Below, one piece after another: positions 3,127 to 43,961 of a stretch of DNA of 64,000 bases. The DNA comes from Ruditapes philippinarum (lineage: Eukaryota): assembly GCF_026571515.1 (NCBI RefSeq), contig NW_026854188.1, positions 372,001 through 436,000 on the forward strand, written 5' to 3'. The number at the start of each line of letters is the position of its first letter. The stretch's first letter is position 1. The translations under genes and the position numbers were made by a program. The notes under the pieces are model-generated. The model made no database searches. It was given only the letters and a program-made list of their open reading frames with translations, and was not told the DNA's origin.

Positions 3127-6100
3127 TTAAGATTTGATAAAAATTGCCATGTAGTCGGCTCTTCCAAACATTCGTCTGCTCCAATAGTCGATTGTGTTAA
3201 TCTTCGAGTAAAGGAATTGTGGATATTTTGGATGGTTATCCCAGTTGCATAAGTTATTTGGACGTTCTTCTTCAGATATTACCATGTGACCTTGGTCTAC
3301 AGCACAACCACCATAGTGTGAGTTGATTATAAAGCGACGTTCACCTGATCTGGGTCTGTAATCTCCAGCAATCGAGAAGAGGTTGAAACTTCTGGTTGCA
3401 GTTAGATCTGTATAGCTTGATGAGATAACACGTCGTTTATCAAACCAAGAGTTGATATTACTTCCGGCCCCATTGAATATGACGTAAGCAACTTCTTGAT
3501 TGTTTTCATAGTAGGCATACTTGACATACTTTACCCCAATATTGGCCCAGTTTGAGACAATTCTGTTTCTGTAGTGATCCGAGTACGATCTTGCCATAGA
3601 TTTGGGTTTGTATGAGGAAACACCAACCCCTGAATTAAAGATTTATAATAGAACTATACTAATACAATAAATACAATATTAGCAGCATGCATATCATATG
3701 GGAACATTTTATTCAAATATTCTTTTCGCTAAACATGTGAAAATGTGAAATTTTACTTACTGTGAAATTATCAGCTTTAATATAGTTTTCATAGATAAAT
3801 CAGTATATCTCTTAAAAGCATGGATAAAATATAGGTCATCTTACGAAAGCCGTAAATGTAAAAAGCCACCTGTATGCTATTAACCAATACTGAGCCTTTT
3901 TGATAACTTCCTGATTTATGATAATTAAGCAGTATGAAGAAACCAAAGACAAATATATTTTCATTTTATATCAGATAAATGTGTTCACAATTGATCTTTT
4001 GCAGAGCATACCAGTTTGCATACTTTATCGTCAACTGTAATAATATTACTGTAGCTAGCTATAGGGTAGATGTTTTGTTCAAGCACAGAACGATTATGAT
4101 TTTTATACTACACTAAAGTTCCTCTGAAAGATTATTATTATAGTCATAGATTGTTTAGAAAATATCAATGTAGACGTATAAAAGTTCTAATTACATAAAA
4201 GAATATTTAAAAATTACAGCAATTGTTTGAATGTTGTTGTGTGTTTTTTTTGTTCTTGTTGTTTGATTTGTTATTTTGCTGTTTTTTGTTTTTGTTTTGT
4301 TTTTGTTATTGTTGTTTTCTTTGTTGCTGTTACTTTTCACTGTAAGCTTGCTCGCATTTTAAGGTTTAAAAAAATAATTCTTGCACACCTTTGGTCCACG
4401 CATTATATACATTTTGCCCATTACTTGATGAGGCCCGAAATACCATCTTCCATCCGTCCTGCTCAAGCTCCGAGACAAGCAGCACCCGTTGTCCAGGAGT
4501 ATTCAATCTGTAATAAAGTTAATAGTTTGATCAATGGCTCGCTCGTTTGGTCTCGGTCCTGCTGAATTGTCTGAATAATTATAAATTTCAGGCATTAAAT
4601 TGCTGCTTCAAAATTAAATGGAAATTGCGTCAATGCTCAAGAATATTAAAAATTCACAAAGGGCTATAATTCATTTAAGTTCTATACCAGAGTTAGCCTT
4701 TGATAGTGACCTCCAAATATGATCTCAAGACATTTATTACGTTTTATGTGAATATTTTCAGTTTTCTTTCGAAAACTGATGTTAAAGTTTCAAATGAATA
4801 CCTACCACTACATACATGTCGTTTCAAAACTTTAACCAAGACTTTTCTAACTTCACATTGTGACAATTATTCAGTCTAAATCTAAATTAGGTTCACGGGG
4901 TTTAGAGTGTGATCTCCAATTATGATCACGAAAACATAAATTCATATAAACATTTGTATTTGGTTTCAATTGTTCTTAAAAAATGATGTTACAGTGCCAA
5001 GCAATAACCAAGAATTTTCCGAGTTCACAAAGAGTCTATTAATCAATCAAAATCTATGTCAGAGTAATGGTCCTTGGAAAGTGACCTCTATTCATGGCCA
5101 CGAAGACATGCATTAAGATTAAAGTAAATTCAGAAGGTTCGCAAAGGGTCATAATGCAGTAAAATCCAAGATAAGGTACTGATTTTGGATAATTTTTGTC
5201 TTGGATATTGACATCTACTTCTCATGCCAAAGACATGATGCCAAAGACATAAATTAAATTTCAATTGAACACTTCATTACATAATTATGATCGTCACTTT
5301 TCAATGATATTACATGGAAAACTTTAAGCAGGACTTATTTAACATGCGCATGGAGACATCAATTGCATTACACATATGCCAAAACATCAAAGACCGGATA
5401 TGGTGACCACGATAGTATCCTATTTCAATAAGTTGTAATGTGATTGTTTTCCGACTGGTTTGCATTTATTATAAAAAAAATATTAAAAACGTGACTGTCC
5501 AGAAAACTAAATGATAAATTTCCAACATTGGCAGTAATACAACAATGCGATAAAGCGAAAACACAACAATGCGAAAAAGTCAAAATATAACAATGCGAAA
5601 AATCGGAAAAAAACAACAAAAAAAACAACAGATGAAATGCAAATAGACGCCAGATTTTGCGTGTCGTATTGCCGCCCTTCTTCTCACGTAATTTCGACTT
5701 TTCGCCTCGAAAATCCGAAAAAGCGAATACACGAAGAGATGACAAAAAACAACAACATTAAAACGTGCAACCACAGCGCGTCGTCACGAGAATCTATCCG
5801 TTACTGCATGTTTGTCCTCCTTTAATGTAAACCTGCATGCACGCTCACATGCAAGACATATAAAAAAAATAGCTACAACAGTTAACGTATCTTGTATGGC
5901 ATAAAATTGTAAATATTATAAGGTTATTCAACATAGTTGAATCGATACTGAATTCTATTAAACGAGTAAGCAGCTGTCAAACCTATATTCAACGAGAAGC
6001 GTGCCGTGTCTGATATAAGTCTTTCAACCTTCTTTGAGTTAAATATAATCAGTATTCAACTAAACAAAGATAAATTACTTCATGATTGCACGCTACAATT

Positions 6101-8239
6101 TTTACATTTAAACTTAACTTTGTCATTCGCGTACAGTAAGGATTGATTTTTATGGGGGTTTTAACGAGGCTAGACGGATGTCATTCAGCCGATCCAAAAT
6201 TCTATATCAAATCATTATTTTAGTCCATTTAGGCTCCTTTCAATTTTGCAACTCCAGATATTCCGTATCAAACCACTGTTGTACTCCATCTAGCCTGCTC
6301 TATTGCGAAACAAGTTCTTGCACCTTATATTATTAACTTTCGAGTCCGCTTCCTGTAACCAACCAGTACTTGTGTCATATGAAGAAACATGGTCGTGACT
6401 CGATAAGAGCGCGGACCAATAATCCCTGGGTTGAGAGACAGACACCTTATCACTATTCCACCGCTCCACCTTTCGGATCGGTTAAATGAAAATGAGGCAA
6501 AATTGAGATTGGATCCAATAAAAATTTATATGGGGAGATCACAAGGTGCAAACGTTCATTTTTTACATTCTACAAGTTGTGAAATAAATATTCGTGTCCA
6601 AAAACTCCATATCAAATCCATATTGTACTCCATCAAACATTGTTTTCTTTTTCTGAGTCAAAAAACAAAGTTTATCTCTCTGTTTAATAAATCCATATTT
6701 TACTCAAAGTATAGATCTAGCATATTATTGCTCAGAAAACGAATATTTGTTATTTCAGGTTATTTCAATGGTAGACAGCTTAACCGTAAGCCTTGACAAA
6801 CGGTATTTAGAATATAATTTCTAATTATTTCCTATTTAGTTATCTCCTTATTTCCTAGTCTTTGAAAATATGTCATTTTTGAAGAAACTTAGTTTAGATA
6901 ATAGGAAATAAGCAAACAACTCATTACCAATTCTTGAAATTTTGTACAATCATTCGAAAGTAATTAAGTTTTTATATATAGATTTTAAACAAAGGAAAAA
7001 AAAAGTAATTTCTAACCTTGACTGTGAATTATCTACCCTTGCAATAAATAAACACTAACTTTATGTTTAAAGCAGCGTGTCAATGTCTCCAGATTCTTAC
7101 TTATTTTCATGAAAATTTTAGAAATGTATTTTTAAGTAAAGTTTTGTGAAGTGAAGCACATTGCAATCGACACTTACAATCCACGTAAACCAAATAGAGA
7201 ATAAAATCTGCAAAAACAGCCCAGTCACGCAGAAGAAAAATTATGATAAATATTGCAAAAAATGTCATTAATCGTGCATAACATGTAAAGTTTTACTTGA
7301 ATCTTGAAACTTTTCACATTTCATAAAATCTTCTTACGTTTTTTCAAGGTTGAATTTCATGAAATATTTCGGCTCATATGGAGGCATGCAGCTTTAAAAG
7401 TACACTTTCAAATGAACAATACTGAATTTTACAAAAGTACACAGCTGTAAAATATATCATGGACGAAGCGCTAGTTGTGTACGAGTCCAATATAATCGGT
7501 ATGGTACTCAACAATAGGCCCTATACGAGTATACGAAGGTCTTCATTTCATTAAAACAATTTTCTTTTTGAAAAGAAAATAATTACTGACACTATATTTC
7601 TTTCGAAATAAAGGACTGGTTATCAGTTTCTCTACGTGTTATAGGGTTTGTAAGCGAACAGCATGGATCCTGATCAGACTGCGCGGATGCGCAGGCTGGT
7701 CTGGATCCATGCTGGTCGCAAACCCATTATGTTGGTTTTGTCATGACGCGGCTCATATAACTTTGATTTCGCTTTGTGTTATTTCATTGTGATAATTTAC
7801 ATAAATATTCAACATATTTCACCCGTGAAACAATAATCTGAGCTATGAGCTCTTATCGACTGAGTACAATATTTGCCACAAACAAATATAATATCATCTC
7901 TATACTTTCCTGTTAAAGTAACAACCCGGTAAAAAAATTCAGTTTAAGTGGTAAAAAAATTGAAAATTGATATTCCAGATAGAAAAACTATAATAAGATT
8001 TTAAAAGTGATCGAAGGAGAAAAAACATGCCTTGAATTATCACTTTTTTGTTGTTCTTTTTCACTTTCAAGCTTATCCAATCTTTCCAATACTTTCTTCA
8101 TGTTCATATTAATTTCCATCATTTTGTCAAACAAAAAGTTTTCAACGGACCGTGTTGACAAAGGCTCACCCGACAAGACAATTCTAACGTCTGCTACAAG
8201 CAGACAAAATAAACTGGCAAATAACAGAGACCTACTCAT
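3127..8239 (-). CDS. Uncharacterised secreted protein, paralog A (signal peptide + coiled coil + ~200-aa globular domain), 3 exons, 276 aa
   Basis: Exons 8239-8031 (MSRSLLFASLFCLLVADVRIVLSG...SDNS, phase 2, GC donor AG|gcatgt), 4507-4389 (tacag|A TTG...LNTPGQRVLLVSELEQDGWKMVFRASSSNGQNVYNAWTK G|gtgtg) and 3629-3127 (ttcag|GG...VGVSSYKPKSMARSYSDHYRN...FGRADYMAIFIKS*). Total 831 nt, in frame. Exon phases and the 119-nt exon 2 match the other two paralogs. Confidence 0.88.
4530..5425. repeat. Degenerate ~170-200-bp repeats, probably an old Helentron-like element, in intron 1 of paralog A
   Basis: Recurring TTCACAAAGGG..ATAAT..., GTGACCTC(C)AA.TATGATC.C(A/G)AAGACAT and AAAGTTTCAA.TGAA motifs. Confidence 0.45.
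6270..6467 (-). mobile_element. Degenerate SINE of a second family
   Basis: On the - strand it has a tRNA-like head (GGAGCGGTGGAATAGTGATAAGGTGTCTGTCTCTCAACCCAGGGA) and a body containing GTACTGGTTGGTTACAGGAAGCGGACTCGA. Confidence 0.55.
7071..7393. mobile_element. Diverged TTAA-flanked MITE related to 63395-63732
   Basis: TTAA|AGCAGC...CTCCAGAT at the left end and ATATGGAGGCATGCAGCT|TTAA at the right end. Similar length to the 63.4-kb copy. Confidence 0.65.
7620..7754. mobile_element. Half copy of the same MITE (intron 1 of paralog A)
   Basis: Spacer in reverse orientation plus one arm AGCGAACAGCATGGATCC...TCATGACGCGGCTC. A further short fragment lies at about 57658-57712. Confidence 0.85.
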
Positions 8240-8295
8240 ATTTTCCTAACACGAAACAGGATAAATGCTATACTGGCCGGATCACGAGGATGAAT

Positions 8296-8617: not shown

Positions 8618-9754
8618 GTTCGTTTAATTGCATTATGGGACATGTAAATAGTACTTTTTGACGAGATGTTTATTAAGCACAGTCAAACGGAATAAGTGTT
8701 TCATTATAGAAGAAATTTAAACATTATTACGTACTTTGTATTCACATATAACTAACTGAAGAAATTTACGGTGCTAAATTTTTAGTCAGAGTATGAAAAA
8801 AACGTGAGTTTGAATTGGAAATTGGGTAAAAATTAATAAAAGTGTTTATGATATTCTGCAAATAAATTCCAGGTGATTCTTATAAAATCTAATACCTTTT
8901 TTCCGAGTCCCTTACAGATGGTATCGTTATTATCTTTTTAATTTATTTATTATTATTATTTTCATTATAATTACAATTATTATTTATTTTTATAGACCGT
9001 TTTACACTGTAATATTTCCATAGAAACGAAAGTAGCATTTCGCGCATGTGCATTCTCCGTAGGGCAAAAACGAAAGAATAAATTTTATCAGTTTTATAAT
9101 TTAATACAATATAAATGATTAAATTGCAGTTCTGAATAGTTTACTAGAATAGTTTACTTGATTAATAACCGAGGCAATAGTGAATCTAAGTAATCAACTT
9201 GAACATTTCTGCATTTACTCGTTCATTATATTTGAAAGACACTTTATGATGCTTTCGATTCTGACAAGAGAACCTTTTCATACAAGCATAAGAATTAAGT
9301 ATCTTTTGCATTTTAAAAGTGTGCTGAAATGCGTCACGTGGATATATCATCCTTTAATTTATATACTCGTTATTTGAAGGTGTCATTATTGTGAGTTTCA
9401 TCATTGAAAGATATACTATGTTCAAATTTGAAGTTAGAAAATATTGATTATTGCGACACAGTTTCTTTGAAAATATAAAATAAACATGTTTTTACTTCAC
9501 ACAAAGTAGTTATGTTTAAAACTCTACACGTAAAAGATGGTCACAATATAAATATTAAGTGCCCTTTAAAGAACTTGCAGTTTTTTTAACTTGATCTGTA
9601 ATAGGGAAAACAGCTCCCCATAAATAGTTTTTTTTATTCAAATTAGGCATATTCAGTAAGAATTTCATAAATTTCAGTATAGGGTCTCGACAGCTTCCTT
9701 GGCATCTTTAAAAGAAATTGTTAAACTAATTGGATTGTTGAATTAAATTGAAAT

Positions 9755-9989
9755 GAGCCGTGTCATGACAAAACCAACATAATGGGTTTGCAACCAGCAT
9801 GGATCCAGACCAGCCTGCGCATCCGTGCAGTCTGATCAGGATCCATGCTGTTCGCTTACAAACCCTATTACAAGTAGAGAAACTGATAGCGAACAGCATG
9901 GATCCTGATCAGACTGCGTGGATGCGCAGGCTGGTCTGGATCCATGCTGGTCGCAAACCCATTATGTTGGTTTTGTCATGACATGGCTC
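9755..9989. mobile_element. Palindromic MITE (GAG...CTC termini, AAAT target duplication; Sola-like)
   Basis: About 100-bp inverted arms GAGCCGTGTCATGACAAAACCAACATAATGGGTTTGC...GGATCCATGCTGTTCGCT. AAAT flanks both sides (9751-54 and 9990-93). Confidence 0.88.
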
Positions 9990-10711
9990 AAATATATTTA
10001 ACATTTTAATCTTTTAGGTACTGACGTAGCACTTTATTTGCATTAACAAAATTTAACATGTATTTTACTTTTCTGTGACCTTAACAAGAGCTTGGGTTTA
10101 CTTTAATTTTTACAAGCTAAATATGACACAAAAGTGATAAAAAGATACACGCGAGCGTAAAATGGTAATTGTAAAGCAATGACAAATAAACAAAGTTGGG
10201 TTTGGCTGGTTTATCTCTACATAAGAATGAGTTATGGTTTAAAACAGGCAACATATCGTGCTAAACAAATGAAAAAAAATGTTTTATCTATTTATGAACA
10301 ACCACAATGCTTTGTTTAAACATTTTTGAAACATTTCTCTTTGTAGACTATCTAAAAGATACCGATACTTGTCTACCTAAACAAACAATGCGCGTATTGA
10401 AAAATATAATTTCCTTAAGATGTTTACTTACACACCTTTACCCTTTCGCAGTTGTTTCTTTACGTGTTTGACAAATGATAATTACTCTTTGGTGTAGGAA
10501 CTTCCTGATTTAACAATTGATGATATACGAAGTAAACAAGTAGTGTACATGATAAAATGTACTCTGCCTATTATTGACAATTTTCAATGTTGTAAGTATC
10601 CTATATTTCTCTATAAATCAAATTTGCATGCATGATGTTTTTTTTTCTATAATGAAACGGTTATTCTTATTCCGTCAAATAAAGATCTCGTCTTTTTGCA
10701 TCTCCCATGAT

Positions 10712-10857
10712 NNNNNNNNNNNNNNNNNNNNNNNNNNNNNNNNNNNNNNNNNNNNNNNNNNNNNNNNNNNNNNNNNNNNNNNNNNNNNNNNNNNNNNNNN
10801 NNNNNNNNNNNNNNNNNNNNNNNNNNNNNNNNNNNNNNNNNNNNNNNNNNNNNNNNN
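10712..10857. other. Assembly gap (146 N)
   Basis: Run of n characters. Confidence 1.
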
Positions 10858-12773: not shown

Positions 12774-13076
12774 ATGCATAATTATAAGTTTTTAGACTGT
12801 CTACTTGTGCTGCTTATTGTAGATATAAAATATGTGCACTTAGAGGAAATTTCGGAGTCAAAGGGTTTGGGAGACAAGTTTTTAGAAAAAATGATTGAAA
12901 TTAATTTGAATGTACAAAAAACACTTGAAAGACTGGATAAGAAGATTGATAGTGGGAAAGAACGAAATAGGAGCGTACTCTCAAGGTAAGAACAGTTATT
13001 ATCTCTCCTAACATTCTGAGATCATATGATAAATCTAAATAAATCTGAATGTATCTATATAGATTTCTATCTCTTC

Positions 13077-13109
<33 letters not shown>

Positions 13110-15164
13110 GTGTTGTGTTGTGTTGTGTTGTGTTGTGGTGTGTGTGCGTGCGTGTGTAATTAAAAAGTTAGCTTGTTTTTTATGAAATCTTTTAACAATT
13201 ACACATTTCAGATTGTTGACCTCGGAACGACGGGAGTTGCTTGTTGAAGATCTCGAAACAGATGGTTGGGAGATGATTTTCCGAGCTACATCATGTAATG
13301 GGCAAAACGTGTATAAAGCCTGGACAACAGGTGGGTAGTTTAAAAGCACATTAATCCTAAGAATTGAATATCTTATATCAAACATATGTTTGATACTTGA
13401 TAAATGATGGATTTATACTTCATAAATGATGGGTTTCAGGCATCTTATATGTTTTTGATTTTAAGAAACTGTGTCGCCTATTCAGAAAATTACACAAAAC
13501 GGACTAAAAACAGAAAGTTTTTTTAGGTCAGACCGCTGATGTTCGTCTGTAAAAAAAATTTTGAGTCCGTTATATACAACGCAGACACTCTAAGAAACTT
13601 CACGCAATTACAATCCACATGCATTACATTTACAGATGTTTCATTGGGGGGTTTGTTTAAATGTCTAGCATCGTTTAGCGATTCAATTTCATGAACACTT
13701 TTTGTTAAGATTCTATCTCGTTTTTTCATGTATTGATATCAGTCAGTTTGCATAAAATATTTTACAAATACAAGAACAAAAAACATTATAAAAATAAAAC
13801 ATACAAAATCACAATGATGAACGGCATGCAATATCTCAGACGACAACTTAAATGATGAAATTACATATGGCGAACATAATAAAATATATTTAGCTATCTA
13901 CAACAAATAAATGCGTTAATTAACAAGGTGAATTAACAGTACAGAAAATGAAATATAATAAATATATGAAAATCAGTGTCAGAGGTAGTGGGTCCATTTT
14001 GCGACATTTTCTTCGTAAGCATTGCAGCTTGTGAACACACCAGAGCAATATATTTTGTCGACGACTGCATGAAAATGCAATAGAACTACAAATATTAATA
14101 AATTTAGAGGAAAGTCAGGAGGGTAGAATTGCATTTCGGTTTATTTATCTATTTTATGTTTTTTTGTCTTCTAAAAAAGAATTTGTATCTTATAAAAAAA
14201 TAAAAATGTTGACAACTAAAACTGTGATCAACCTTTTTTTCGCTTTCACATACGGGGGTTAAAGTGCATTCTGGATAAGCGGATATTCACATATATTTTA
14301 CCGATGCTCAATTTTGAGATCCATATGAGATTTATATACCCCGAGTAGCATTACATTAACAAACAAAAGCTGCTGATTCAAAACGTTATAAGTTTACATA
14401 GTATCATAGACTGTAACAGGCTCATCCATTGTTAAAGTTGACTGTAATCACATAATTTCGAATACATAATGTTATATATTATACAAGTTATACTCAGTTT
14501 ATATATTTATCCTTTTCTCACTCCAGTACTTCCTCATTTAATACACTGTCATTTAAATGTTAACAGATATAGCCTTCTAATTTGAGAATAACAACAAAAC
14601 AATTAGCCCTGATTATTAACGACGAATGGTATTTTTATCTTAATTCTTTTCTTATCGGCAGGGGCTAGTACATGTTCCGACAAGCCAGCTTCAATGGAGC
14701 GATCATATTCGAGTCACTTCAGAAACAATATTGTCTCAAACTGGGTCAATATTGGAGTAAAGTATGTCAAATATGCATTCTACAAAAACAACAAAGAGGT
14801 CGCTTATGTCAAATTCAATGCAACCGGAAGTAACATCAACTCCTGGTTCGACAAAAGTCGAGTTCTAGCCTCCAGTTACACGGATTTAACATCAACAAGT
14901 GTTTATAATATATTCTCGATTGCTGGATATCACATTCCAGGAAGTTTCGAGCGTCGCTTTCATATCAACAAAGCTTATGGCGGATGTGACGTAGATATTG
15001 GTCATATGGTTGTTTCAGAAGAAATCCCTCCCAAAAAAGGATGTTTCTGGGATATTCATCCAACATATCCACAATTCCTGTATTCAAAAATAAATTCTGT
15101 GGACGTCTGGAACAGGAGAATGTTCGGACGAGCCGATTACATGGCAATATTTATAAACATCTAG
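12774..15164 (+). CDS. Uncharacterised secreted protein, paralog B, 3 exons, 277 aa
   Basis: Exons 12774-12985 (TCAAG|gtaag), 13212-13330 (ttcag|A...LLTSERRELLVEDLETDGWEMIFRATSCNGQNVYKAWTT G|gtggg) and 14662-15164 (ggcag|GG ASTCSDKPASMERSYSSHFRN...FGRADYMAIFINI*). Total 834 nt, in frame. AATAAA follows the stop at about 15186. Confidence 0.9.
13077..13157. repeat. (TG)n + (TTGTG)n microsatellite in intron 1 of paralog B
   Basis: Seen directly in the sequence. Confidence 0.92.
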
Positions 15165-18783: not shown

Positions 18784-19239
18784 ATGACTGAATTTTCCAG
18801 CAAGGTCTTTGAATATGAGAAATTTGTGAATGAAAAACTTAAAGAAGATTTGAGGTTGATACTTGAACAAAGAGATAAAACTTATCAGCAAATTGCTGAA
18901 TACTTACAACTTAAAACTTCCATCGAAAAGATACAAGAAGTCAAGCTTACAGAAGGTCTAAAGACTAAAGTGGATCTTGGTTGTAACTTTTATGTCCAGG
19001 CAAATGTGCCAGACTCCTCGAGAATCTTTGTATTTATAGGATTTGGTTTCTTTTTAGAAATGACCCATGATGAAGCCCTTAAATTTATAGGCAAAAGAAC
19101 AAAGTTACTAAACGTGCATGTAGAAAAATTGACAGACGATGCAGCTAAGGTTAAAGCAAATATTAGGTTAGTCCTCGAAGGTTTAAGAGAGTTGCAACAT
19201 ATCAGCAATGAACAAGAAACACCAAAAAGGGAAATGTAA
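18784..19239 (+). CDS. UXT: Protein UXT homolog (alpha-prefoldin-like subunit), single coding exon, 151 aa
   Basis: Recognisable UXT motifs: KVFEYEKFVNEKLKEDL, YLQLK, KTKVDLGCNFYVQANVPDSSRIFVFIGFGFFLEMTHDEAL, VKANIRLVLEGLRELQ. Helix - beta hairpins - helix prefoldin-alpha layout. Uninterrupted ORF. Confidence 0.93.
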   Translation: MTEFSSKVFEYEKFVNEKLKEDLRLILEQRDKTYQQIAEYLQLKTSIEKIQEVKLTEGLKTKVDLGCNFYVQANVPDSSRIFVFIGFGFFLEMTHDEALKFIGKRTKLLNVHVEKLTDDAAKVKANIRLVLEGLRELQHISNEQETPKREM

Positions 19240-22972: not shown

Positions 22973-23095
22973 ACTATTTAGGGGATAAGATGTGTAAGCA
23001 GTGGGATAGCTCAGTTGGTAGAGCCTCGGTACGGTATTCTGAGGGTCCTGGGTTCGAGTCTCGGTCAGGCTGCACATTTTTCTCACCCTGTGACA
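22969..23095 (+). mobile_element. tRNA-derived Pol III element (pseudo-tRNA, nominal anticodon GGT) ending in an LTR-like TGTGACA terminus
   Basis: A box TAGCTCAGTTGG 23007-23018, B box GGTTCGAGTC 23051-23060, D and T arms pair, T5 terminator at 23077-23081, then CCCTGTGACA. The acceptor stem has 2 mismatches and position 33 is C, so it is not a canonical tRNA. Confidence 0.6.
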
Positions 23096-23369
23096 TAAAT
23101 ATTTGTTATCCTAATCTTTTACTATTACTTTTATTATTCATGTTCACCCTTGGGTAGCGCCTCAGTTCATATTTGTGTCAGAAAGCTTGTATTCTTCAGT
23201 ATATCCTGTCAGCAACTTGTATATCACAATTTTAAATTTACCTATTTATAAGGGTTCATTATCCCTAAAATAAAATTTTATGGATTTTTAGGGTTAATTA
23301 TTTTAATGCATTCCAAAAAGGGAGCATATACATTTGTAATTGCTGTCTTGGCTGTGTTTCCAATTGTCC

Positions 23370-23760
23370 TTCTGTCCATGCATCCCTCACACTCACTGTG
23401 TCCATCTGTCCTTGTGTCCATGCATCCCTCACACTCACTGTGTGTCCTTGTGTCCATGCATCCCTCACACTCACTGTGTGTCCTTGTGTCCATGCATCCC
23501 TCACACTCACTGTGTGTCCTTCTGTCCATGCATCCCTCACACTTACTGTGTGTCCATCTGTTCTTCTGTCCATCCATCCCTCACACTCACTGTATGTCCA
23601 TCTGTCCGTCTGTCCATCCATCCCTCACATTCACTGTGGGTCCATCTGTCTTTGTGTCCATCCATCCCTCACACTGACTGTGTGTCCATCTGTAATGCTG
23701 TCCATCCATCCCTCACACTCACTGTGTGTCCATCTATCAATCTGTCCATCCCTCACACTC
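23370..23760. repeat. 36/48-bp minisatellite (TGTCCATGCATCCCTCACACTCACTGTGTGTCCTTG)
   Basis: About 9 head-to-tail units. This repeat produces the spurious HSECEGCMDTRT and SMHPSHSLC ORFs. Confidence 0.9.
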
Positions 23761-24400: not shown

Positions 24401-27263
24401 TTTTTAGCTCACCTGTACCTGTCACATAGTGACAAGGTGAGATTTTGTGATTGCAATTGGTCCGGAATCTGGCCGGCCAGTGTCTGTCCATTTATAAACT
24501 TATACTTTTAACGACATCTCCTCACAATCTGCCTAATTCAGGTGATCGCCTTCTTGTGATCTTTCAAAAAAGAAAAATTATTGGTGAGCTTTCATTATTT
24601 TGAAAGCAATGCTGTTTTTAATTTTAACTCTTTGATAACCAATACTGGGTTGGTCATTTTCATGATTTCGAGAACAAACATAGAGTTGTCCATATAGGCG
24701 ACAGGTAAATTGTCAAAATAATCTTGTGCTTTAAAAACTGACTATTTTTTCAAGTTAATTTGTTAAAAATTACTTCAAACATATTATATATATAATTTTT
24801 TTTTTAACAAAATCAACCATTTGTTTAACTTTCACGTACATGTATAACGGTATTTTGATATTTTTCTTATGCCTATCTGTAAAATCCGGTTTGATTGCAT
24901 GGCTAAAAAGAGCTTTCTCTGGAAATCAGAAATAAACAGAAGGCAAAACAAATACAGGGGTCATCAGATCTACATGGAAAAAATAAGTAGATTCAAACTT
25001 AAGTCAGATTGCATCACCTCATAAACCGCTAAGTCAATTTCATCAAGGAATGTTTCAAAGAATTGAATTCCATGCAGAACTCTTCTTTCAAAAAACCCAA
25101 AGAGCTAGACCTTAGATATTTGGCATGAAACATCTGGGTGTCTACCACGTTTGTTCAAATAAAAGCCCTGGGGTCAAAAATGGCTTGGCCCAAGGGGGTA
25201 ATTGATTTTCCTTATCTATATAATTAAAAACAAAAAATGTTTATTCTATTACACTAAAGAGGTTTTAGTTTAGATATTTGTTGTGAAACATTGTCTGGTG
25301 AACCTCTACAAAAATAGTTCAACAAAAGCCCTCCTGGGTCAAAATTGGTCCTTTCAGGGGAACATAGATTTTCCTTATATGTATATAGAAAAACAATTTC
25401 TTCTCTCAAACAACAAGAGCTAAAGCTTAGTTTTTGTACATGAAACATTATCTAGAAGACCTCTACTAAGTTTGTTCAAAATTAAGTATTTGGGTGAATA
25501 ATGTTCCCCCTAAGGGGGTCATGTCTTTTCCTGTTATAGTAAATACTTCAAAAATCTCCTTAAATACTGCAAGGGCTACATCTTACGAAATTCAACATGA
25601 AACATAGTCAGGTGAACCACTTTCCATAACAATCACTGTCTTTTCATAGCAACCATTAACTTCCCATAGCAACAAGTGACTTCCATCTGTAGGAATATTT
25701 GACTTTCCATGTCAACCATACGCCTCTTTAGCAACCAGTGGCTTTCCATAGCAACCAGTGCCTTTTCATGGCAACCATTAACTTTTCTATGAACACCAAT
25801 GACTTCCTAAGCAACCATTGGTTTCCATAGCTGCCATAAAGCAACCAGTGATTCCAATATCAACCAGTGACTCACATAGTAACCATTGAGTTTTCATAGA
25901 TTACCTTACCTCTCAATGACTTGCCATAGCAACCAGTGACTTCCATAGCAACCATTTACTTTCCATGGCAACCAGTGCCTTTCCATGGCAACCATTTAAT
26001 TCCCACAGCAACAAGTAAACAATATTGCAACCATTGATTTTCCATAACATCTATGACTTTCATAGCAGACACTTTTAATAGCAACCAGGGATATTCTTTA
26101 GCAATCATTGATTCTAAAAGCACAGCAACCTTAGACTTTCATGGCAACAAGTGATTTCCTTTTGCAATCACTGACTTCCATAGCAACCATTGACTTTCCA
26201 TAGCAACCATGTAATTCCATAGCAACTAGTGAATTCCCATAGCAACCATGTACTTCCATAGCAACCAGTGACTTCCCATAACAATCATTGACTCCCATAG
26301 CAACCACTGACATTCAATTGCAACCAGAGACTTTATTAGCACCCAGTTACTTTCCATACCATCTAGTGACTTGCCATAGCAACCATTGATTTCCATAGCA
26401 ACCAGTGACTACTATTGCCACCATTGACTCTCCATAGCAACCATTGCAACATAGCAACCACTGAATTTCCATAGCAACCATATACTTCTATAGCAAACAG
26501 TGACTTTCTACTGAAACCATTGACTTTCATAGCAAGCAGTGACTTCAAATAGCAATTAGTGACTCTCATATCAACCATTGACTTTACAAAGCAACCATTG
26601 ATTTTCCATAAGGTCATTGACTTACCATAAAAACCATTGACCTTTCATAGCAACTGCCTGCTTCCATAACAACCATTGACTTCTATTGCAATCAGTAACT
26701 TCATAGCAGCCATTGACTTTTCATAGAAAACTGTAAATTCCCATAGCAACCAGGACTTACATAGCAACCAATGACTTACATAGCAAACATTGACTTTTTA
26801 CATATCAACCAGTGACTTCCCTAGCAAACATTTAATTTTCTTAGAAACAAGTGAATCTACCTTGAATTTCATAGCATTCAGTGACTTCCAAAGAAACCAC
26901 TGATTTTGTATAGCAACCAGTGACATCTTTAGTAACTATTGTTTTCCTTTAGCAAAAGCAACCAGTAATGTTTTTACAGGAGTAGGCAGTAGACATTTTA
27001 TTTTATTTAAAGCCTATGAGGACTAGAAACATGCATACTAACGAACAGTGTAATACATCACCATATATACATAATATCCACACTGAATCATCAAATGTTT
27101 GCACTTGCAACATTTCAGATTCAAATATGAACTTTATGATTTCATTTTAAGATTCATGTTTTTATTTCTGCTTTTGCTTATGAATATAGATATACAGTTT
27201 TACTTTTTAGAGTATAGATATTCAGGTGAGCATTAGTATTAGGGCCATCACAGTCGTCTTGTT
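24401..27263 (+). mobile_element. Non-autonomous Helentron-like (HINE / pearl-type) element with internal tandem repeats
   Basis: 5' TTTTTAGCTCACCTG followed by the palindrome GTCACATAGTGAC and AAGGTGAG. 3' TTCAGGTGAGC followed by a degenerate hairpin GGGCCATCA...TCTTGTTT. Internally there are ~158-bp degenerate repeats (25100-25620) and a ~20-bp array. Family assignment rests on recalled structure. Confidence 0.65.
25620..26967. repeat. Degenerate ~20-21-bp tandem array (TTCCATAGCAACCAGTGAC / TTCCATAGCAACCATTGAC)
   Basis: Dozens of CATAGCAACCA and CATGGCAACCA cores at roughly 20-bp spacing. Confidence 0.88.
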
Positions 27264-28960: not shown

Positions 28961-31342
28961 GAAACTTACTGTAAAAATACCTCCTCAGAAACTTGAGGAA
29001 ACACTGTAAAAATACCTCCTCAGAAACTTTAGGAAACTTACTGTAAAAATACCTCCTCAGAAACTTAAGGAAACTTACTGTAAAAATACCTCCTCAGAAA
29101 CTTTAGGAAACTTACTGTAAAAATACCTGCTCAGAAACTTTAGGAAACTTACTGTTAAAATACCTCCTCAGAAACTTTAGGAAACTTACTGTTAAAATAC
29201 CTCCTCAGAAACTTTAGGAAACACTGTAAAAATACCTCCTCAGAAACTTTAGGAAACTTACTGTAAAAATACCTCCTCAGAAACTTGAGGAAACTTACTG
29301 TAAAAATACCTCCTCAGAAACTTTAGGAAACTTACTGTTAAAATACCTCCTCAGAAACTTTAGGAAACTTACTGTAAAAATACCTTATCAGAAACTTTAG
29401 GAAACTTACTGTTAAAATACCTCCTCAGACACTTAAGGAAACTTACTGTTAAAATACCTCCTCAGAAACTTTAGGAAACTTACTGTAAAAATACCTTCTC
29501 AGAAACTTAAGGAAACTTACTGTTAAAATACCTCCTCAGAAACTTTAGGAAACTTACTGTAAAAATACCTCCTCAGAAACTTTAGGAAACTTACTGTAAA
29601 AATACCTCCTTAGAAACTTAAGGACACATACTGTAAAAATACCTCCTCAGAAACTTTAGGAAACTTACTGTAAATATACCTGCTCAGAAACTTTAGGAAA
29701 CTTACTGTTAAAATACCTCCTCAGAAACTTTAAGAAAACTTACTGTTAAAATAACTTATCAGAAACTTTAGGTTACTTACTGTAAAATACCTCCTCAGAA
29801 ACATTAGGAAACTTACTGTAAAAATACCTCCTCAGAAACTTTAGGAAACTTACTGTTAAAATACCTCCTCAGAAACTTTAGGAAACTTACTGTTAAAATA
29901 CCTCCTCAGAAACTTTAGGAAACTTACTGTAAAAATACCTGCTCAGAAACTTTAGGAAACTTACTGTAAAAATACCTCCTCAGAAACTTTAGGAAACTTA
30001 CTGTAAAAATACCTCCTCAGAAACTTTAGGAAACTTACTGTAAAAATACCTCCTTAGAAACTTAAGGACACATACTGTAAAAATACCTCCTCAGAAACTT
30101 TAGGAAACTTACTGTAAATATACCTGCTCAGAAACTTTAGGAAACTTACTGTTAAAATACCTCCTCAGAAACTTTAAGAAAACTTACTGTTAAAATACCT
30201 TATCAGAAACTTTAGGTTACTTACTGTAAAATACCTCCTCAGAAACATTAGGAAACTTACTGTAAAAATACCTGCTCAGAAACTTTAGGAAACTTACTGT
30301 TAAAATACCTCCTCAGAAACTTTAGGAAACTTACTGTTAAAATACCTCCTCAGAAACTTTAGGAAACTTACTGTAAAAATACCTCCTCAGAAACTTTAGG
30401 AAACTTACTGTTAAAAATACCTCCTCAGAAACTTTAGGAAACTTACTGTTAAAATACCTTCTCAGAAACTTTAGGAAACTTACTGTTAAAATACCTCCTC
30501 AGAAACTTTAGGAAACTTACTGTTAAAATACCTCCTCAGACACTTAAGGAAACTTACTGTTAAAATACCTCCTCAGACACTTTAGGAAACTTACTGTAAA
30601 AATACCTCCTTAGAAACTTAAGAAAACTTACTGTTAAAATACCTCCTCAGACACTTTAGGAAACTTACTGTAAAAATACCTCCTTAGAAACTTAAGGAAA
30701 CTTACTGTAAAAATACCTTCTTCAGAAACTTTAGGAAACTTACTGTAAAATACCTTCTCAGAAACTTAAGGAACTTACTGTTAAAATACCTCCTCAGAAA
30801 CTTTAGGAAACTTACTGTAAAAAACCTTCCTTAGAAACTTAGGAAACTTTACTGTAAAAATACCTTCTCAGAAACTTTAGGAAACTTACTGTTAAAATAC
30901 CTTCTCAGAAACTTTAGGAAACTTACTGTTAAAATACCTCCTCAGAAACTTTTAGGAAACTTACTGTTAAAATACCTCCTCAGACACTTAAGGAAACTTA
31001 CTGTTAAAATACCTCCTCAGACACTTTAGGAAACTTACTGTAAAAATACCTCCTTAGAAACTTAAGAAAACTTACTGTTAAAATACCTCCTCAGACACTT
31101 TAGGAAACTTACTGTAAAAATACCTCCTTAGAAACTTAAGGAAACTTACTGTAAAAATACCTTCTCAGAAACTTTAGGAAACTTACTGTAAAAATACCTT
31201 CTCAGAAACTTAAGGAAACTTACTGTTAAAATACCTCCTCAGAAACTTTAGGAAACTTACTGTAAAAATACCTCCTTAGAAACTTAAGGAAACTTACTGT
31301 AAAAATACCTTCTCAGAAACTTTAGGAAACTTACTGTTAAAA
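28961..31342. repeat. 37-bp tandem satellite, ~64 copies, with 444-bp higher-order duplications
   Basis: Unit GAAACTTACTGTAAAAATACCTCCTCAGAAACTTTAG. Period checked at 29041 and 29078. Diagnostic variants recur exactly 444 bp apart. Confidence 0.96.
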
Positions 31343-31988
31343 AGGAATTGACCGGTAGAGGAGCAAGGTATGGTATTATCGACAGTATACATCAAAATTC
31401 AACCTAAAATCTTATTGGTTAACTAAAGTGTTCGAGAATATTGCAAATACGATTAACGAGTGTTGGTAGCTGAATGCTTTTATGTTTAAAAGGTGATTAT
31501 ATTATTTTTAATTTATGAGAACCACTCAGGTTTGAAGACACTAAATGGCTGGTGTTACCGACAGTTGTACGGTATTATCGACACAATAAAAAAATGATAA
31601 AATATTGTATGTTAAACTTTAGTTTTTAGATTTTTCAGGTAAAATAATATACAAAACGATGTATTACATACCTTTTATACCTGTGCAAGATATTAACCAC
31701 GCAGTCAGATATAGTGAAGAAGCTTGTAGAAGGCGTCATTGCACGGCTTACCAAGACGAAGTGTGAAAATTGTATACTTTTGTGGATATAAGAATAAAAA
31801 GACAAACGGAATATTTTATTATTTTATTTCTTTTCCTTTAAATCATGATTTTACTATGTATTCTCTTAGTTATTTATTTATTATTACTAACAATCATAAA
31901 TAACTTCAATAAACATTTTATTACAAATACTGTGGCAGGTTTTAACTTTGCTTTCTGCTGGAGGTTTGACATAGGAAGAGGTAAACAA

Positions 31989-34481
31989 CTAGCAGAACTC
32001 ACAAGTAAAATTGTAACCTGAGATTTCGCTAGCTGTTTTACCAACAAATTCTTCAATATCAGTACACTCGATATGCCACCATCTAGAGCAGCTATCACAT
32101 CCTATCCATTCCTCTGGCAAACCTTCAGCAGAATGGCAACCAGGACACACTTCTGCCTCATCGTAATCGCTGTCATCCATGTACGAGATTTCCATCTCTT
32201 CATTTTCATTCTCACTATCACTACATTTATCAGATTTTTTGCATTTCATTTTTTTCTTAAAAGCTTTCTTAAGTTCTCTCTCCCTTTTCTTTTTCTCTTT
32301 CTCCTGCTCTCGCTCAAGTTTTTTTCTCTCTCTCTCTATCTTTCTTGCTTGTTTTTCTTCTTCTTCTTTTTTTTTCTTTTCATCCCTTTCTTTCATCATT
32401 TTCAATGCAACTGATCCGGACAGAGCTTTTGGCAGCTTACCCCGCAAAGTATTATTTGTTTTTTTAGCTTTAATTTCTGGTACTCTAAGTTTAAAGAATG
32501 CTGGGGAAACATAATCTGGAGAACGGACATTTTGTGAAAGGATTTTAAGTGGCTGTTGAAGTAACGGAGTGGATTGCTGTACAGATATATCGGTTGACGG
32601 GTTCGAACTCGGCACAGTAGCTTGGACTGAACCAGAAGATGTACAAGGATCAGAGCTAGAATCAGAAGAAGGGATTTGTAATGTACATGCCATGCTAACC
32701 TGGTCTACATTCACACTTTTTGTTAGTTCTGCCTGGTTCGAACTCGGCACAGTAGCTTGGACTGAACCAGAAGATGTACAAGGATCAGAGCTAGAATCAG
32801 AAGAAGGGATTTTAAATGTACATGCCATGCTAACATGGTCTACATTCACACTTTTTGTTAGTTCTGGCTGGATGAGTGGGGCAGACAACTTTGAAGGGCC
32901 TAACTTTGAAAGATCAATCCCTTTAATAGACAGTGGGTATAAACCTGACCTCTTAAATGCACTTATACTATTGGCTAATGTTGTTACCTTGTCCCAGGCT
33001 GTTTTGAAAACGCTTGGGAAATGGTATTTGGTAAATGGTTGCCCAAGATTTTCCATTTGCCAAGCTTTAACAGCCACAGACCATTTCATTTTCATTGGAC
33101 TAAAAAGTCCAATGTCACAAGCCTGCAACACATGCGTTGCATTAGCGAGTAGACAGTAGAGTATTATGCTGTTATCAGCACAATACTCTGCTGCTACTCG
33201 ACTGATATGCGTACTATGGCCATCTACAAATAAAATCACTGGTTTATGAATGGATTTATCATCAACAAAAGCATTGAATTCTCTAAGAAAGGATAGGAAC
33301 AAATCTGAATCCATCCATCCGTTAGCAGAATGACCATAAATGGCCTCAGGAAACCCAGATAAAGCATCATCACGAAACCGCTGCCCAGGATACACTATTA
33401 AAGGTGGCATATAATCCCCACTGGCATTCAAGCATGCCATCACAGTTATCTGAGTTTTGTCACTAGACAAAACCTGATATACATGCCTGCTCCCTTGTGG
33501 AGCAAGAACCTTTTTTGATGTCACGCTTATTGGAAAGCCCGACTCATCGGCATTGAAGATTCGTTTTGGATCTCCTATCAGCTTCTGAAAGTCGGGTACC
33601 TCCTTTTCAAGGTACTCAAATAGACCCTTGTACCAACCTGCAAATAAAGACAAAGGGCTATATGCAAGTATGTATGCGATTAAAAAGATAAGGAATCATC
33701 TTTGCAGTTCAGAATAAGAAATAATTATGAACTTGAGGCACTTACCATCGACCATCTCGTAAGAGATTGAAGCTCTCTGGTGCCCTAACCTTGTTGAAAT
33801 TTCCGGGTTCCTGGTCGTAAAGGCTTTATACCATGCCTTACCAGGTAAATTGTCAGTGAACTTTGTTTTCCTTCCATCAGTATCCAGCACTCGCTTCACT
33901 TCGTACAGAAGCTCTTTCCTAGTAAGTGGGTACCCTTAAATAATATATATATATGAAGGCATCTTGAAAAGAAAAAGAACACCTCAATTTTGATTGTTTA
34001 TTGATCTATGTTAATAAATAAAATCAAAGCGTGGCTTCATTTATAGATAAATTATTTTTATATTTTTTTTTTGACAAGTTACATGGCCTTATATGAACAG
34101 TTATTTGTAGTATATTGCAAATAACCGTTTATATATATGTATGTCACATAACATGTTAATAATCTTTATTACAAATTAATAATTGTACAGAAATATCATT
34201 TATGTTTTGAAATCTGTATTCATACCTATTTCTGCCATCAATGTAATGTAGTTAACTAGTGTCTTCTCTTCTGCCTGTGTTAACTCGGGTTTGCTGCCAG
34301 GCGGGGTGGGGTCCATAGGCACCCTGCCATATAATTTATCCAATAGGGTGGTTCTTGGGACCCCAAATACCTTCGAGGCTTTGGACTTAGACATTAAGCC
34401 CTCCTGGATCGCACTGATAGCACTGGACATTTTGCTTGGGCTATATGTAACCCTCTTTTTAACCTTTAGCTGATTTGACAT
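31989..34481 (-). CDS. pogo-type transposase: HTH_psq + CENP-B-type HTH + DDE_1 (DD35D) + charged coiled coil + PHD finger, ~697 aa, 3 coding exons
   Basis: Exons 34481-34226 (MSNQ...ASKVFGVPRTTLLDKLYGR...LTQAEEKTLVNYITLMAEI G|gtatg), 33934-33746 (GYPLTRKEL...NLPGKAWYKAFTTRNPEIS...G|gtaag) and 33637-31989. Catalytic motifs IFNADESG, LFVDGHSTH and LQACDIG, with 35 residues between the 2nd and 3rd Asp. C-terminal CPGC...WIGCDSCSRWWHIEC...CEFC (C4HC3). Probable non-coding 5' exon ends at 34804 (CAG|gtaag). Confidence 0.88.
32600..32868. repeat. In-frame 135-bp (45-aa) tandem duplication in the transposase linker
   Basis: GTTCGAACTCGGCACAGTAGC starts at 32601 and again at 32736. The peptide ELTKSVNVD.VSMACT..IPSSDSSSDPCTSSGSVQATVPSSN occurs twice. 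Confidence 0.9.
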
Positions 34482-35388
34482 TCTATAAATAGGAAAATGG
34501 ATATAGTTCACTTTAAATTGATCAAAACATTTCTTTTACATATAATTAAGTATTTTTTAGTAAGTGAAAGACTATAAAAATATTTATTGGTGCAAGTCAT
34601 AAGTATGTCGATAACACAGACCCTTGCTTATTTTAGGATTGTGTTATCGACACCCACGCATATTATGACTATTCGAGTTTTACAACATTTAGTGGTTTGA
34701 AACCATTTCAACATCTACAGATAACACCGTCATTTCAAAAATAATAAGGCGCGCTCGCGTGTTTATCACAGTAATACGAATATAACATAACACCGTCTCT
34801 TACCTGATGACGTAAGCGGCTTGGTCGTCTCACTCTTCTCAAAAATTTTGACGATAAATGTTGACAGAAAAATGTCCTGATGTTCAAAACTTCGCGGGTT
34901 TGGACTTTTACGTAATATGTGACGTAATTTGATACAATATGACGTAATACATGATTACAATAAATATATGTCGATAATTACAACCTGTCGATAATACCAT
35001 ACCTTGCTCATGTATGTATGGTTATTTAAACCGTATTACAAAGATTTTCTAGACATTGTTTACGTTTTAAAATCATCCGTGAGAATGACGATCTGCCTAC
35101 CGTTATGAAGGCGACTTGTGTTTCGTTGATATCAATGAATACAAAACAACATTTAAAATTGTATTGTCCTGATATTAGGTATTTATCACATACCCGTGCC
35201 GCTTTTGCGACTCCTTAAAAAAACGGTATTGCATGACGTACCGTGCATACATTTTGACATGGCGTCATTTACGTTATACAAACATAGCGTAAAGACGCGC
35301 TAAATGTTAACGTTACACTCATAATGAAAATGTTATTCTTTTTCACTGTAAACAATTTTTATTTTGGTATGTGATAAGTAAGATATTA

Positions 35389-40239: not shown

Positions 40240-40305
40240 TGATTGGCTGCCAATGATGTAGTGACATGTTCCGCATATAAGAGTATGTATTTAAGAGGCG
40301 CGCAT
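40240..40305 (+). promoter_or_regulatory. Putative core promoter of paralog C
   Basis: TGATTGGCTGCC 100 bp before the ATG, then ATGTAGTGACAT, then TATTTAAGAG at about -63. Confidence 0.5.
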
Positions 40306-40350
40306 CCGGGTTGCATCGTATTTTAACAATATCGTTTCACATTGTAAAAT

Positions 40351-43300
40351 ATGTTGAAAGCCTGGCTGTTAATTCTCTTTTTGGGAGATATTAAATTTGT
40401 GCTTTCGGATGAGCCTTTGTCGCCAAGTTATTTTCAAGAGCTATTGTTGGAGAAAATGACCAAGATAGATTTGAATGTTCAGAAAGTAATGGAAAGATAT
40501 GATAAGATTGATAAAGAAAAGGAACAAGAAAATAACGACATTTCTAGGTAAGAACGGTTTCTCTCCCTTGTTGCAATCAATATCGCGTCAAACTTGTTTA
40601 AGTAATTAGTGTGCAGCGCTCGATATCGTGTCTAAGTTGCTGAAACATTTTTGTAGTACTCAGTGACGTGTCAAATGCTCAGAAAGATTTTTTTATAAAG
40701 CTCAAGTTTCTACTAAGGGGCATTTCAAGCTTTCAGTAAGTACGGCATGCAAAAAAACTCCTTGAATGGCTTTTCGGTACAGAACTTTTCAGGTAGACAT
40801 GTTTGCTACATTATGTTCGGTGGTATTTTGGATAGCGCGTGTGAAAATGTGTTTGTTTTCACTTCGGTGTCTGATTTAAACCATATTCACGAAAATCAAG
40901 GACATTTTCTTTTAATTTATGACTACTAACATAATGACATCAATTTTTGCCTGTCTTTATTGAAGGAGATGACGTCAGACGTTCAACAAATACGCGAACG
41001 CTGCGCAAGCAACAGTAAAAGTATTTAAGTGAAGAAGTGTATTTAAATTGATAATCATGATATTTGGAACAAAACGCAACAAATAACTTTAATGTTAAGC
41101 TACAAATTTACGATATCATTAAAAACATACGCCAAAAATAGTTCGGTAGAGCTTTATCACACGCACTTTGGATGATATGGACTTTATTATACAATATAAT
41201 ATGAGGTTAGTATACATTGTTAAGAACAATACTTAAATCTTTTAGTTTACAAAACAATATTGAATGTGGCAATACCCGAGTCTAATAAAGTTTTCTAGCT
41301 GTGTACTAGTCCAACAGAATCAAGTGTTTAATGAAATCTTTAGTTTATTCCACCATTTGTTTGACATTGTGACAGAACTTTGTTGATTCAAGTACAACAA
41401 GGATTTGATACCTGATTTTTTATTGCTTTTACTTTCAAAAAGGAAAACGAAGCTAGATTGAATATAATATGCATTTCATTTACATAATGTAGATATTTTA
41501 AACTCTGACAATGAAATCGAGGTTATATTGAGATGATATGCACTTAAACTGAACGGTTTGGACTTACAAAATAAAAACAAGCCTATATTGGATACGACAT
41601 GCACTTGGTATGCACTCTTGCGACTCTGGAAATGAAAACGAGACTGAATTGATAATATTTGATCCGATAATGATTTCACCTGGAACGTCACCTGATACTT
41701 AATTTAAATCATTAATTCTTTTTAATACCCTTACATGATATAATTCGTATTTCAGGTTTTCGACCACTGGACAAAAGGTTCTGCTAGTGAAAGATCTTGA
41801 AAAAGATGGATGGAACATGGTATTTCGTGCAACATCAAGTAATGGGCAAAACGTTTTTGACGCATGGACAAAAGGTGCTTATTATACTAAAATAATCGAA
41901 TTTATATTATATTAATATAGATTTTAATGTAATTGTATTACAACATTATGGACAGAAAATAAATGCGACATAATGTTGCATCTAAAGATATACACTGTAT
42001 CGACGAAGGGAGTCACGTGATCTGTAGTAGGTAAACATACCCACGGCCCAGCGTTTATGTATTTTTAATACATTTAATTTTGCTACAATTTCTTAGCAGT
42101 CAACAAATTTAAGTTTTTTTACTGACAAATAATAGAACAGACACTAAAAACTCACACATCATCTGAAGGAGGAGATGGGGTGCATGCCAGGACTTAAGTG
42201 GACTGCAGGAGCTCTCATTCTGTTTAACAGAAACATTTCTTTAACCCAAGACTTATGCTAAAATAGTTTTACATTCGGTTTTCAAATAATTTTTGTTTTT
42301 TTTCTTTTCATCAGTTTTTGAACTACTTGTAAATATCAATTTCTTTCTTTTTTCTTTTTTATTGGAGAAAAAAATACACTTATGAAATTTAAACTTGAAT
42401 TAAGTATTCAATAAATATTTGCTCTTTATCTGTAAAAGTCCTCTGTGAACCCCTACCTACAAAAATGTTTAAATATGGACCAAAATCATTTTTCTCAAAC
42501 TTATGAGAAAATTTCCTCACAAGATGTTTTCTTCAAAAATATGACTAATGAATTTAAAAAGCAATATTTGGAAGGTATGTTGATAATTAAAATGTTCATA
42601 TACCCTGTCAGAAAGTTTCAGACTAATTTGTTATATACCATCAGATACAACATCTAATTATGGTGGCTGATTTGGTACACTTTTGTGCGTCGTGTTTTCG
42701 CTAGCGACAGCACGATAAAGTGCCAAACGGAGCTAGTGGCGACGACAAGTCGACAGTGCGACAACGCGCAAAATATATATAAAAAAAATGACAACCCTTT
42801 ACCTTTGATGACACCTGATTTTAGCGACAAGCACTAGCTCGGAAGTAGCGATAGAGTAATTTTTCGTATACCTCCGAAAGAGGTAGCTTTATCAATGCGC
42901 ATTTACCAGGCGTGTAATAAATACCACAGAAAGGCTTTATCATTAAAGCTGTTTTGTACATACTACTATATGTCTTGCCTATCTTGTCATATTTTTATGT
43001 AATATACAAGATCTACCATGTCAATGTGATATTACATTGAAATTCAATGATGACAGATCTTTTGTGTGCGTGTGCTGTTGTTGGTGTTGTTGTTTTCCTT
43101 TGGCTACGAACACAACAGTAGTTTAAAATGCATTTACAATATTCATTAACGCAATGGAAATTATTAATGGATACATACAACATGGAAATAGCCTTGTAAG
43201 TTTATCATCAGTTATTTTTTGTGGTCAAGATGTGTGTTTTCTTTCATTTTCTATTGTAAATTGTAATATTTACAACTTGTTTACTAACTTAAGTTACATG

Positions 43301-43961
43301 ACTGGCGGGTCGATCGTAGGAAGAATATAAGATTATAACTTTCTAAGTCACCATGCACATACTGACGTTATTGCGATTGTAGTTTATTAATAGTTTATTA
43401 ATAGTGTTTTTAATAATTTAGTAATTTATATAACTAATTATATCTCGTTATTCAGGGATTGGCATTTGCTCTGACAAACCAAAATCTATGGTACGATCGT
43501 ATTCAAGTCACTACAGAAACAATGTTGTCTCAAACTGGGCCAATATTGGAGTAAAGTATGTCAAATATGCGTACTACGAAAACAACCAGGAAGTAGCCTA
43601 CGTCATATTCAACGGATCCGGAAGTGATATCAACTCTTGGTTTGACAAACACCGTATTATTGCATCAAGCTACACAGACCTTACAACAACCCAGAAGTAC
43701 AACTTTTTCTCGGTCGTTGGAAATTACGTTCCAAAAAGCCGGGAACGTCGCTTTTTCATCAATACATTATATAACACATGTGCCGGAGACTCTGGTTATC
43801 TGGTCGTTTCGGAAGATGAACCTCCCAATAATCTTTGCAGTTGGGATAAACATGCGAGTTATCCACAATTTTTATACTCGAAGATTAACTCCGTCGACCT
43901 CTGGGGCAGTCAATTGTTTGGAAGAGCCGACTATATGGCGATTTTCGTCAAAACTGAATAG
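40351..43961 (+). CDS. Uncharacterised secreted protein, paralog C, 3 exons, 273 aa
   Basis: Exons 40351-40547 (MLKAWLLILFLGDIKFVLSDEP...TCTAG|gtaag), 41756-41874 (ttcag|G FSTTGQKVLLVKDLEKDGWNMVFRATSSNGQNVFDAWTK G|gtgct) and 43456-43961 (ttcag|GG IGICSDKPKSMVRSYSSHYRN...FGRADYMAIFVKTE*). Total 822 nt, in frame. Confidence 0.9.

Follow-up and report, generated by a model that had tools for sequence, protein, structure and literature searches.

Three clam genes encode coiled-coil proteins, probably secreted, whose head domain is very probably a truncated and divergent relative of fibrinogen-type domains

The accessible parts of PMC8878817 and PMC11741071 describe bivalve proteins (CfFREP, AiFREP-2, oyster ficolin-like) in which a signal peptide and a short coiled coil precede a C-terminal fibrinogen-like head and whose paralogues have expanded locally; mollusc proteins of this kind, with a fibrinogen-related domain (FReD) as the head, are reported there to oligomerise and to bind microbial patterns. 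Intelectins or X-type lectins (hITLN1, XEEL, lamprey LSVL) are trimeric Ca2+-dependent lectins according to the accessible part of PMC11084424, and snail FREPs combine an IgSF part, an interceding region and a lectin part (PMC7588048, accessible part). Here we analyzed a stretch of 64,000 nucleotides of the clam Ruditapes philippinarum (assembly GCF_026571515.1, contig NW_026854188.1, positions 372,001 to 436,000), referred to as the window, which contains three related genes, A, B and C, for proteins of comparable layout. Their head is very probably a shortened and strongly diverged offshoot of remote FReD ancestry; it lacks the N-terminal subdomain A and most likely keeps a B/P-like core.

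The loci were found by a six-frame search of the window with motifs proposed in an earlier reading of the sequence (the original prediction). Splicing by coordinates gave the following models:

8031..8239, minus strand: gene A exon 1, heptad helix after a signal-peptide-like start; GC donor end, phase 2
4389..4507, minus strand: gene A exon 2 (119 nt), first head strand GW.M.FR and a possible vestige of the end of fibrinogen subdomain A
3127..3629, minus strand: gene A exon 3, remaining head including the conserved cysteine pair, up to the stop
12774..12985, plus strand: gene B exon 1, heptad helix after a signal-peptide-like start
13212..13330, plus strand: gene B exon 2 (119 nt), spliced model
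14662..15164, plus strand: gene B exon 3, head up to the stop
40351..40547, plus strand: gene C (LOC132739358) exon 1, heptad helix after a signal-peptide-like start
41756..41874, plus strand: gene C exon 2 (119 nt), spliced model
43456..43961, plus strand: gene C exon 3, head up to the stop

The spliced frames of A (276 aa), B (277 aa) and C (273 aa) are open with one terminal stop apiece, and all three genes have introns of phase 2 and then 1 and an exon 2 of the same length. Five of the six splice donors are GT. Intron 1 of gene A (8030-8029, minus strand) requires a non-canonical GC donor (GC-AG), whereas B and C have GT at the homologous position; if it is left unspliced, read-through reaches a stop after 14 codons. 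Pairwise identity between the proteins is 59–64%, and tblastn of exon 3 between the copies gave E-values of 1e-73 to 1e-83, a likeness far beyond chance. The ratio of non-synonymous to synonymous divergence (dN/dS, Nei-Gojobori) was 0.11–0.21 for the head and 0.31–0.61 for exon 1, rough values given a dS of 0.8–1.9; such low ratios indicate purifying selection. A, B and C are three intact paralogues, as had been proposed together with their common exon phases and modular layout. The motifs that had been called invariant were located in all three loci, with the exception that HYRN reads HFRN in B.

The model of gene C is identical to a RefSeq entry, ‘uncharacterized protein LOC132739358 [Ruditapes philippinarum]’ (record P0001). 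In a protein search with its exon 3, in which 27 proteins were kept from 44 candidates, this entry ranked first, and named relatives belong to Mercenaria mercenaria and Dreissena polymorpha. Neither A nor B was represented in full length among the 27 matches in either protein search, which did not extend to longer fused models; outside annotation support exists for gene C only. P0013 (274 aa), a full-length relative of the same layout, lies on a contig of 1,019 nt, which suggests a spliced transcript from some related clam. An IQ-TREE analysis of 26 heads joins A and C with the Mercenaria records P0004 and P0005 and two further records (97/93) and places B outside (90/81), so that the duplication giving rise to B is probably older than the split of Ruditapes and Mercenaria.

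Exon 1 had been thought to encode a signal peptide plus a coiled coil. The best 8-residue Kyte-Doolittle mean within the first 35 residues is 2.7 in A, 3.8 in B and 2.9 in C, and the same hydrophobicity test was passed by 56 of 92 homologues compared with 8 of 368 control windows. This test is a heuristic for a signal peptide, and the likely cleavage site of B is atypical. About four heptads follow before the head of ~195 aa: in the best of seven registers 7 of 8 (A), 6 of 9 (B) and 7 of 8 (C) a/d positions are hydrophobic, with 20–29% at the other positions. The AlphaFold2 model of gene C has a continuous helix over residues 25–67, with pLDDT values of 93–96 over residues 31–60. Heptads and helix thus agree with the predicted coiled coil, and the hydrophobic N-termini are consistent with a signal peptide by the heuristic; the three proteins are presumably secreted.

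We did not find a standard match for the head. Pfam returned none above cut-off in the 20 members of a head alignment (A1) and no real match for the exon-3 peptides, with Fibrinogen_C absent at E ≤ 10 for these and at E ≤ 1 for gene C in full length. The NCBIfam scan of gene C gave no match, all PDB sequence matches to exon 3, A1 or a second alignment (A2) had E > 0.2, and in a viral structure library none reached E ≤ 1e-3; the best value there was 0.01, and weak cyanophage rows labelled fibrinogen/collagen-NC1 ranked lower. C1q, C-type lectin and apextrin had no Pfam match in the head and did not appear in the top rows of the fold search, a list which does not exclude them. The earlier statement that the head cannot be assigned to a named family was therefore confirmed.

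The absence of a name does not reflect a small family. A profile of 20 heads retrieved 1,429 representatives at E ≤ 1e-3 (847 at 1e-10) from a library clustered at 50% identity, and many of the best 150 of the 1,429 carry two to four tandem heads per protein. Named members of the family include Saccostrea and Aplysia. We scanned 110 of these listed representatives with Pfam (all of 230–700 aa and 8 of 21 longer ones). The partner domains were PAN (17), F5/8C (3), TSP1 (3), C-type lectin (2), EGF (2) and SRCR, SUEL, Sushi and adhesion GPCR (1 each), besides generic coiled-coil matches; the head itself matched no Pfam family, beyond matches of Fibrinogen_C to subdomain A in three proteins. The family is most likely old and widespread and not specific to bivalves. 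Only two cysteines are conserved throughout (C214 and C233 in gene C numbering, spacing 15–20). The least conserved segments are residues 107–123, 195–202 and 251–262 (mean conservation 0.24–0.34), which are candidate specificity loops, and R203, D217, D225, D236 and D264 may serve a structural or metal-binding role. A description of this family was not found in the mainly open-access literature, nor was any mention of six LOC ids of its members. A catalogue of VIgL-like architectures by Gorbushin in 2019 (Dev Comp Immunol 94:35) reportedly exists and may cover some of them. The accessible parts of PMC10875847, PMC13619432, PMC5433772, PMC7588048 and PMC9334734 name no such head. The snail VIgL name HREP was considered for it and rejected, as in the accessible part of PMC13619432 it denotes Helix pomatia agglutinin heads.

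The predicted fold of the head is confident. Its best structural neighbor is an intelectin, a lectin, and further neighbors include ANGPTL3, fibrinogen, FGL1 and COLFI. When subdomain A was absent from the searched model, intelectins aligned over 152–157 residues compared with 123–127 for TLDc, which was consistently the next fold family after the FReDs for both models. For a family member with subdomain A the alignment ran in register over residues 35–266, with fibrinogen C-terminal-like similarity over the domain, and the Atlas clusters named for the head were fibrinogen only. The original prediction had remarked on a resemblance of the GW-x-hydrophobic-FR start to the N-termini of fibrinogen-like and TLDc domains, and these are the two fold families that were recovered; the head is unnamed as a family, but it is probably not a fold without relatives. 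We found no paper joining the TLDc and fibrinogen folds in the mainly open-access literature.

The link to the FReDs is most direct in homologues that still carry subdomain A. In the three proteins of the Pfam scan Fibrinogen_C covered only model positions 2–56 and stopped at the first head strand. The NCBIfam model NF040941, ‘fibrinogen-like YCDxxxxGGGW’, was above cut-off in four of ten scanned proteins (P0140, P0056, P0070, P0108), and gene C was not among them. This model spans only a 46-residue module, which homologues of the coral clade and of Myxococcota carry directly before the head; no model exists for the body of ~190 aa behind it, which is all that remains in the clam proteins. With P0140 as query, 17 proteins were retrieved, of which those with a name come from Oculina, Stylophora, Pocillopora and Montipora. 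In 16 of the 17 the YCD motif stands immediately before the head, and the remaining one is an isoform from Oculina in which the module is skipped: isoforms X1 (P0182) and X3 (P0186) of Oculina patagonica LOC144664478 differ exactly by fibrinogen subdomain A, which offers a simple exon-skipping route to a truncated head. A YCD-like match in P0061 was spurious and was dropped. Scanning GTDB with one 8-residue pattern, which gives a lower bound, we found at least four loci from five stretches. Three belong to Myxococcota/Nannocystaceae and have a full head (E 1e-27 to 1e-32); the fourth, from a bin of 65% GC that carries the label Enterobacteriaceae, matches weakly (6e-6). The Myxococcota proteins (L001:841-3642, L002:2065-3687, L003:2170-3693) are of surface type, with Cys-rich repeat stalks preceding a C-terminal head and subdomain A intact, and are grouped with the coral members in the tree.

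A fibrinogen-type subdomain A is accordingly fused to the head, in its canonical position, in homologues from corals and myxobacteria. The clam profile matched the coral profile at 100% (E 4.8e-42, 193 columns), and clam ‘DLE.DGW’ was aligned to ‘DM..GGW’, so that the GGW of subdomain A is the same GW that opens the head. The clam segment may be a vestige of subdomain A, which is only suggestive, as 12 of 234 other GW sites score equally high. By sequence, the match of the coral profile to PDB FReDs was confined to subdomain A.

In contrast to the bivalve FReDs, the clam heads have no PF00147 match and lack subdomain A with its disulfide: there is no cysteine at the place of the Cys pair, which together with YCD...GGW is present in the coral and myxobacterial homologues. 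Identity to solved FReDs is 4–11% in structural alignments, and the spacing of the conserved cysteines is longer than the ~13 of ficolins. In canonical FReDs a D-x-D calcium loop precedes the disulfide of the P subdomain (compare Asp252/Asp254 in the accessible part of PMC11741071). Taking Cys214 as equivalent, we found D-x-D/N at most 12 residues before it in just 2 of 94 heads. From intelectins the clam heads differ by an identity of only 7–12%, by the lack of subdomain A and by the presumed oligomerisation through an N-terminal coiled coil. The mature clam proteins contain two (A), four (B) and three (C) cysteines compared with 8–10 conserved ones in intelectins (PMC11084424, accessible part). 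As they pass for neither, we filed the clam proteins in neither group, and they are best described as a truncated, divergent offshoot of the fibrinogen C-terminal-like superfamily.

A further likeness was noticed to the gastropod VIgL proteins (FREP/CREP/GREP). Among the stored proteins 15 of 199, nine of which had seeded the profile used for counting, have in common an N-terminal domain that contains a Cys loop of ~75 residues and often precedes a long coiled coil:

P0088, P0099, P0129, P0132, P0066 and others: Cys-looped N-terminal domain and head

Some of these homologues resemble VIgL proteins in having a signal peptide, a Cys-looped domain, a long coiled coil and the head, whereas the clam genes have no Cys-looped domain. 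No Ig match for this domain was found among the best 60 of 361 PDB profile matches, which were coiled-coil matches only. Judged by their layout, these proteins could possibly form an unrecognised VIgL class.

The leading reading, at about even odds, is that A, B and C act as secreted, coiled-coil-oligomerised, lectin-like recognition proteins; the original prediction had suggested an oligomeric secreted protein of recognition or matrix. The signal peptide would direct each product out of the cell, and the four-heptad coiled coil would bundle two to four chains, probably as a trimer as in ficolins and intelectins. In haemolymph or mucus, the avidity of the clustered heads may then allow them to attach to microbes or particles through repetitive surface glycans or similar patterns, leading to agglutination or tagging. 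This mode would be like that of the bivalve coiled-coil FReDs, with a binding site that must be remodelled because the D-x-D motif is missing and there is only one conserved disulfide; the variable loops could give the paralogues different specificities. We also consider, more tentatively, that the clam head is a branch of a large family of ‘cryptic FReD’ lectin domains that lost subdomain A. Such a family would comprise more than 1,000 clusters at 50% identity from Myxococcota and corals to molluscs, would serve as a further interchangeable head for recognition, among others on the Ig and coiled-coil scaffolds of snail VIgL type, with a ligand site unlike that of ficolins and intelectins, would link FReDs and TLDc structurally and would be invisible to PF00147 surveys.

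The same FReD-like head might instead bind protein or matrix, as the heads of angiopoietin, tenascin and the procollagen C-propeptide do, and A, B and C would then be structural, adhesive or signalling components of shell, periostracum, mucus or gamete coats. We regard this as possible but rather doubtful. ANGPTL3, fibrinogen, FGL1 and COLFI among the structural neighbors, the missing canonical calcium motif, the purifying selection and the occurrence of homologues within adhesion-GPCR, TSP1, EGF and PAN proteins all fit a matrix role. However, the best structural neighbor is a lectin, the head is joined to four kinds of lectin or scavenger module, and the proteins with the Cys-looped N-terminal domain resemble snail VIgL immune proteins. 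Local duplication and decay, as seen at this locus, are moreover typical of bivalve immune families. It is very unlikely that H124, R126, D180, R203, D217 and D264 (gene C numbering) form the active site of a head that acts as a secreted enzyme or binds small molecules. Several of these residues are indeed strongly conserved (R203 in 93 of 94 heads, D217 in 90, D264 as D/E in 90, H124 in 70), but conserved polar residues can be structural, the top structural matches have no enzyme fold, and two to four tandem heads per protein suit multivalent binding.

Finally, the head could be an independent fold family or a relative of TLDc sharing only a common core, with YCD...GGW as a secondary fusion in the clade of corals and myxobacteria. 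The longer alignment with intelectins than with TLDc even without subdomain A, the register kept over residues 35–266 once it is included and the identity of its GGW with the GW opening the head make this unlikely, as do the Atlas names. Furthermore, Pfam TLD did not match in the scans of exon 3, A1 or the 110 homologues, and no typical TLDc partner domain was found among the latter. TLDc proteins are cytosolic, and by their entry titles OXR1/NCOA7, TBC1D24 and MEAK7 bind the V-ATPase, whereas the proteins studied here look secreted. Remote FReD ancestry thus stays the preferred reading of the head.

Since invertebrate lectin surveys count FReDs by PF00147 (e.g. PMC8878817, accessible part), the head family has been left out of them. 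If binding of microbial glycans is true, the known immune repertoires of bivalves and gastropods miss a sizeable class with new binding chemistry, and the fibrinogen fold would be shown to work without subdomain A. A, B and C themselves are ordinary members of the family, and the finding is at present a gain in annotation and not a new mechanism.

The locus had been described as a cluster of three genes; it is no simple tandem array. A and B lie head-to-head, separated by an assembly gap of 146 N (10712-10857), so that their adjacency rests on scaffolding, and C is 25 kb away, on the far side of a prefoldin/UXT-like gene, satellites and a transposon. Just outside the coordinates of the original prediction, blastn revealed one more piece, ~160 bp beyond the stop codon of gene A:

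2746..2965, minus strand: decayed relic of the exon-3 5' portion, two pieces ~80 bp apart that contain indels

It aligns to B with 71.6% identity over 88 nt (E 1e-7) and to A with 81% over 58 nt (E 2e-9) and is a remnant of a fourth copy or of a partial duplication. A scan for kappaB-like promoter sites gave none upstream of A, B or C and one in the whole window.

Between B and C a single open reading frame (18787-19239, plus strand, 150 aa) matches Pfam Prefoldin (E 5.7e-18); we take the gene to be UXT-like, and as the frame is intronless it is possibly a retrocopy. Minisatellites occupy 21260-22973 (period 41, 41.7 copies), 23352-23749 (period 36/44), 25919-26831 (period 39/78) and 28961-31343 (period 37, 64.5 copies), and these arrays account for the strong GC skew at 20–32 kb. 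A Pogo-like DNA transposon at 31989-34535 (minus strand) consists of an HTH_psq exon (34200-34535) followed by a reading frame for a DDE_1 endonuclease and a PHD finger; inside the transposon, 135 bp are duplicated in tandem at 32600-32871. A palindromic MITE-like repeat of ~260 bp is present in full at 9743-10001 and 49470-49727 and in part at 7621-7768; one copy lies between A and B and one inside intron 1 of A. Downstream of C, at ~46395-58579 (minus strand), exon matches to ANF_receptor and 7tm_3 mark a multi-exon class C GPCR, presumably GABA-B-receptor-like.
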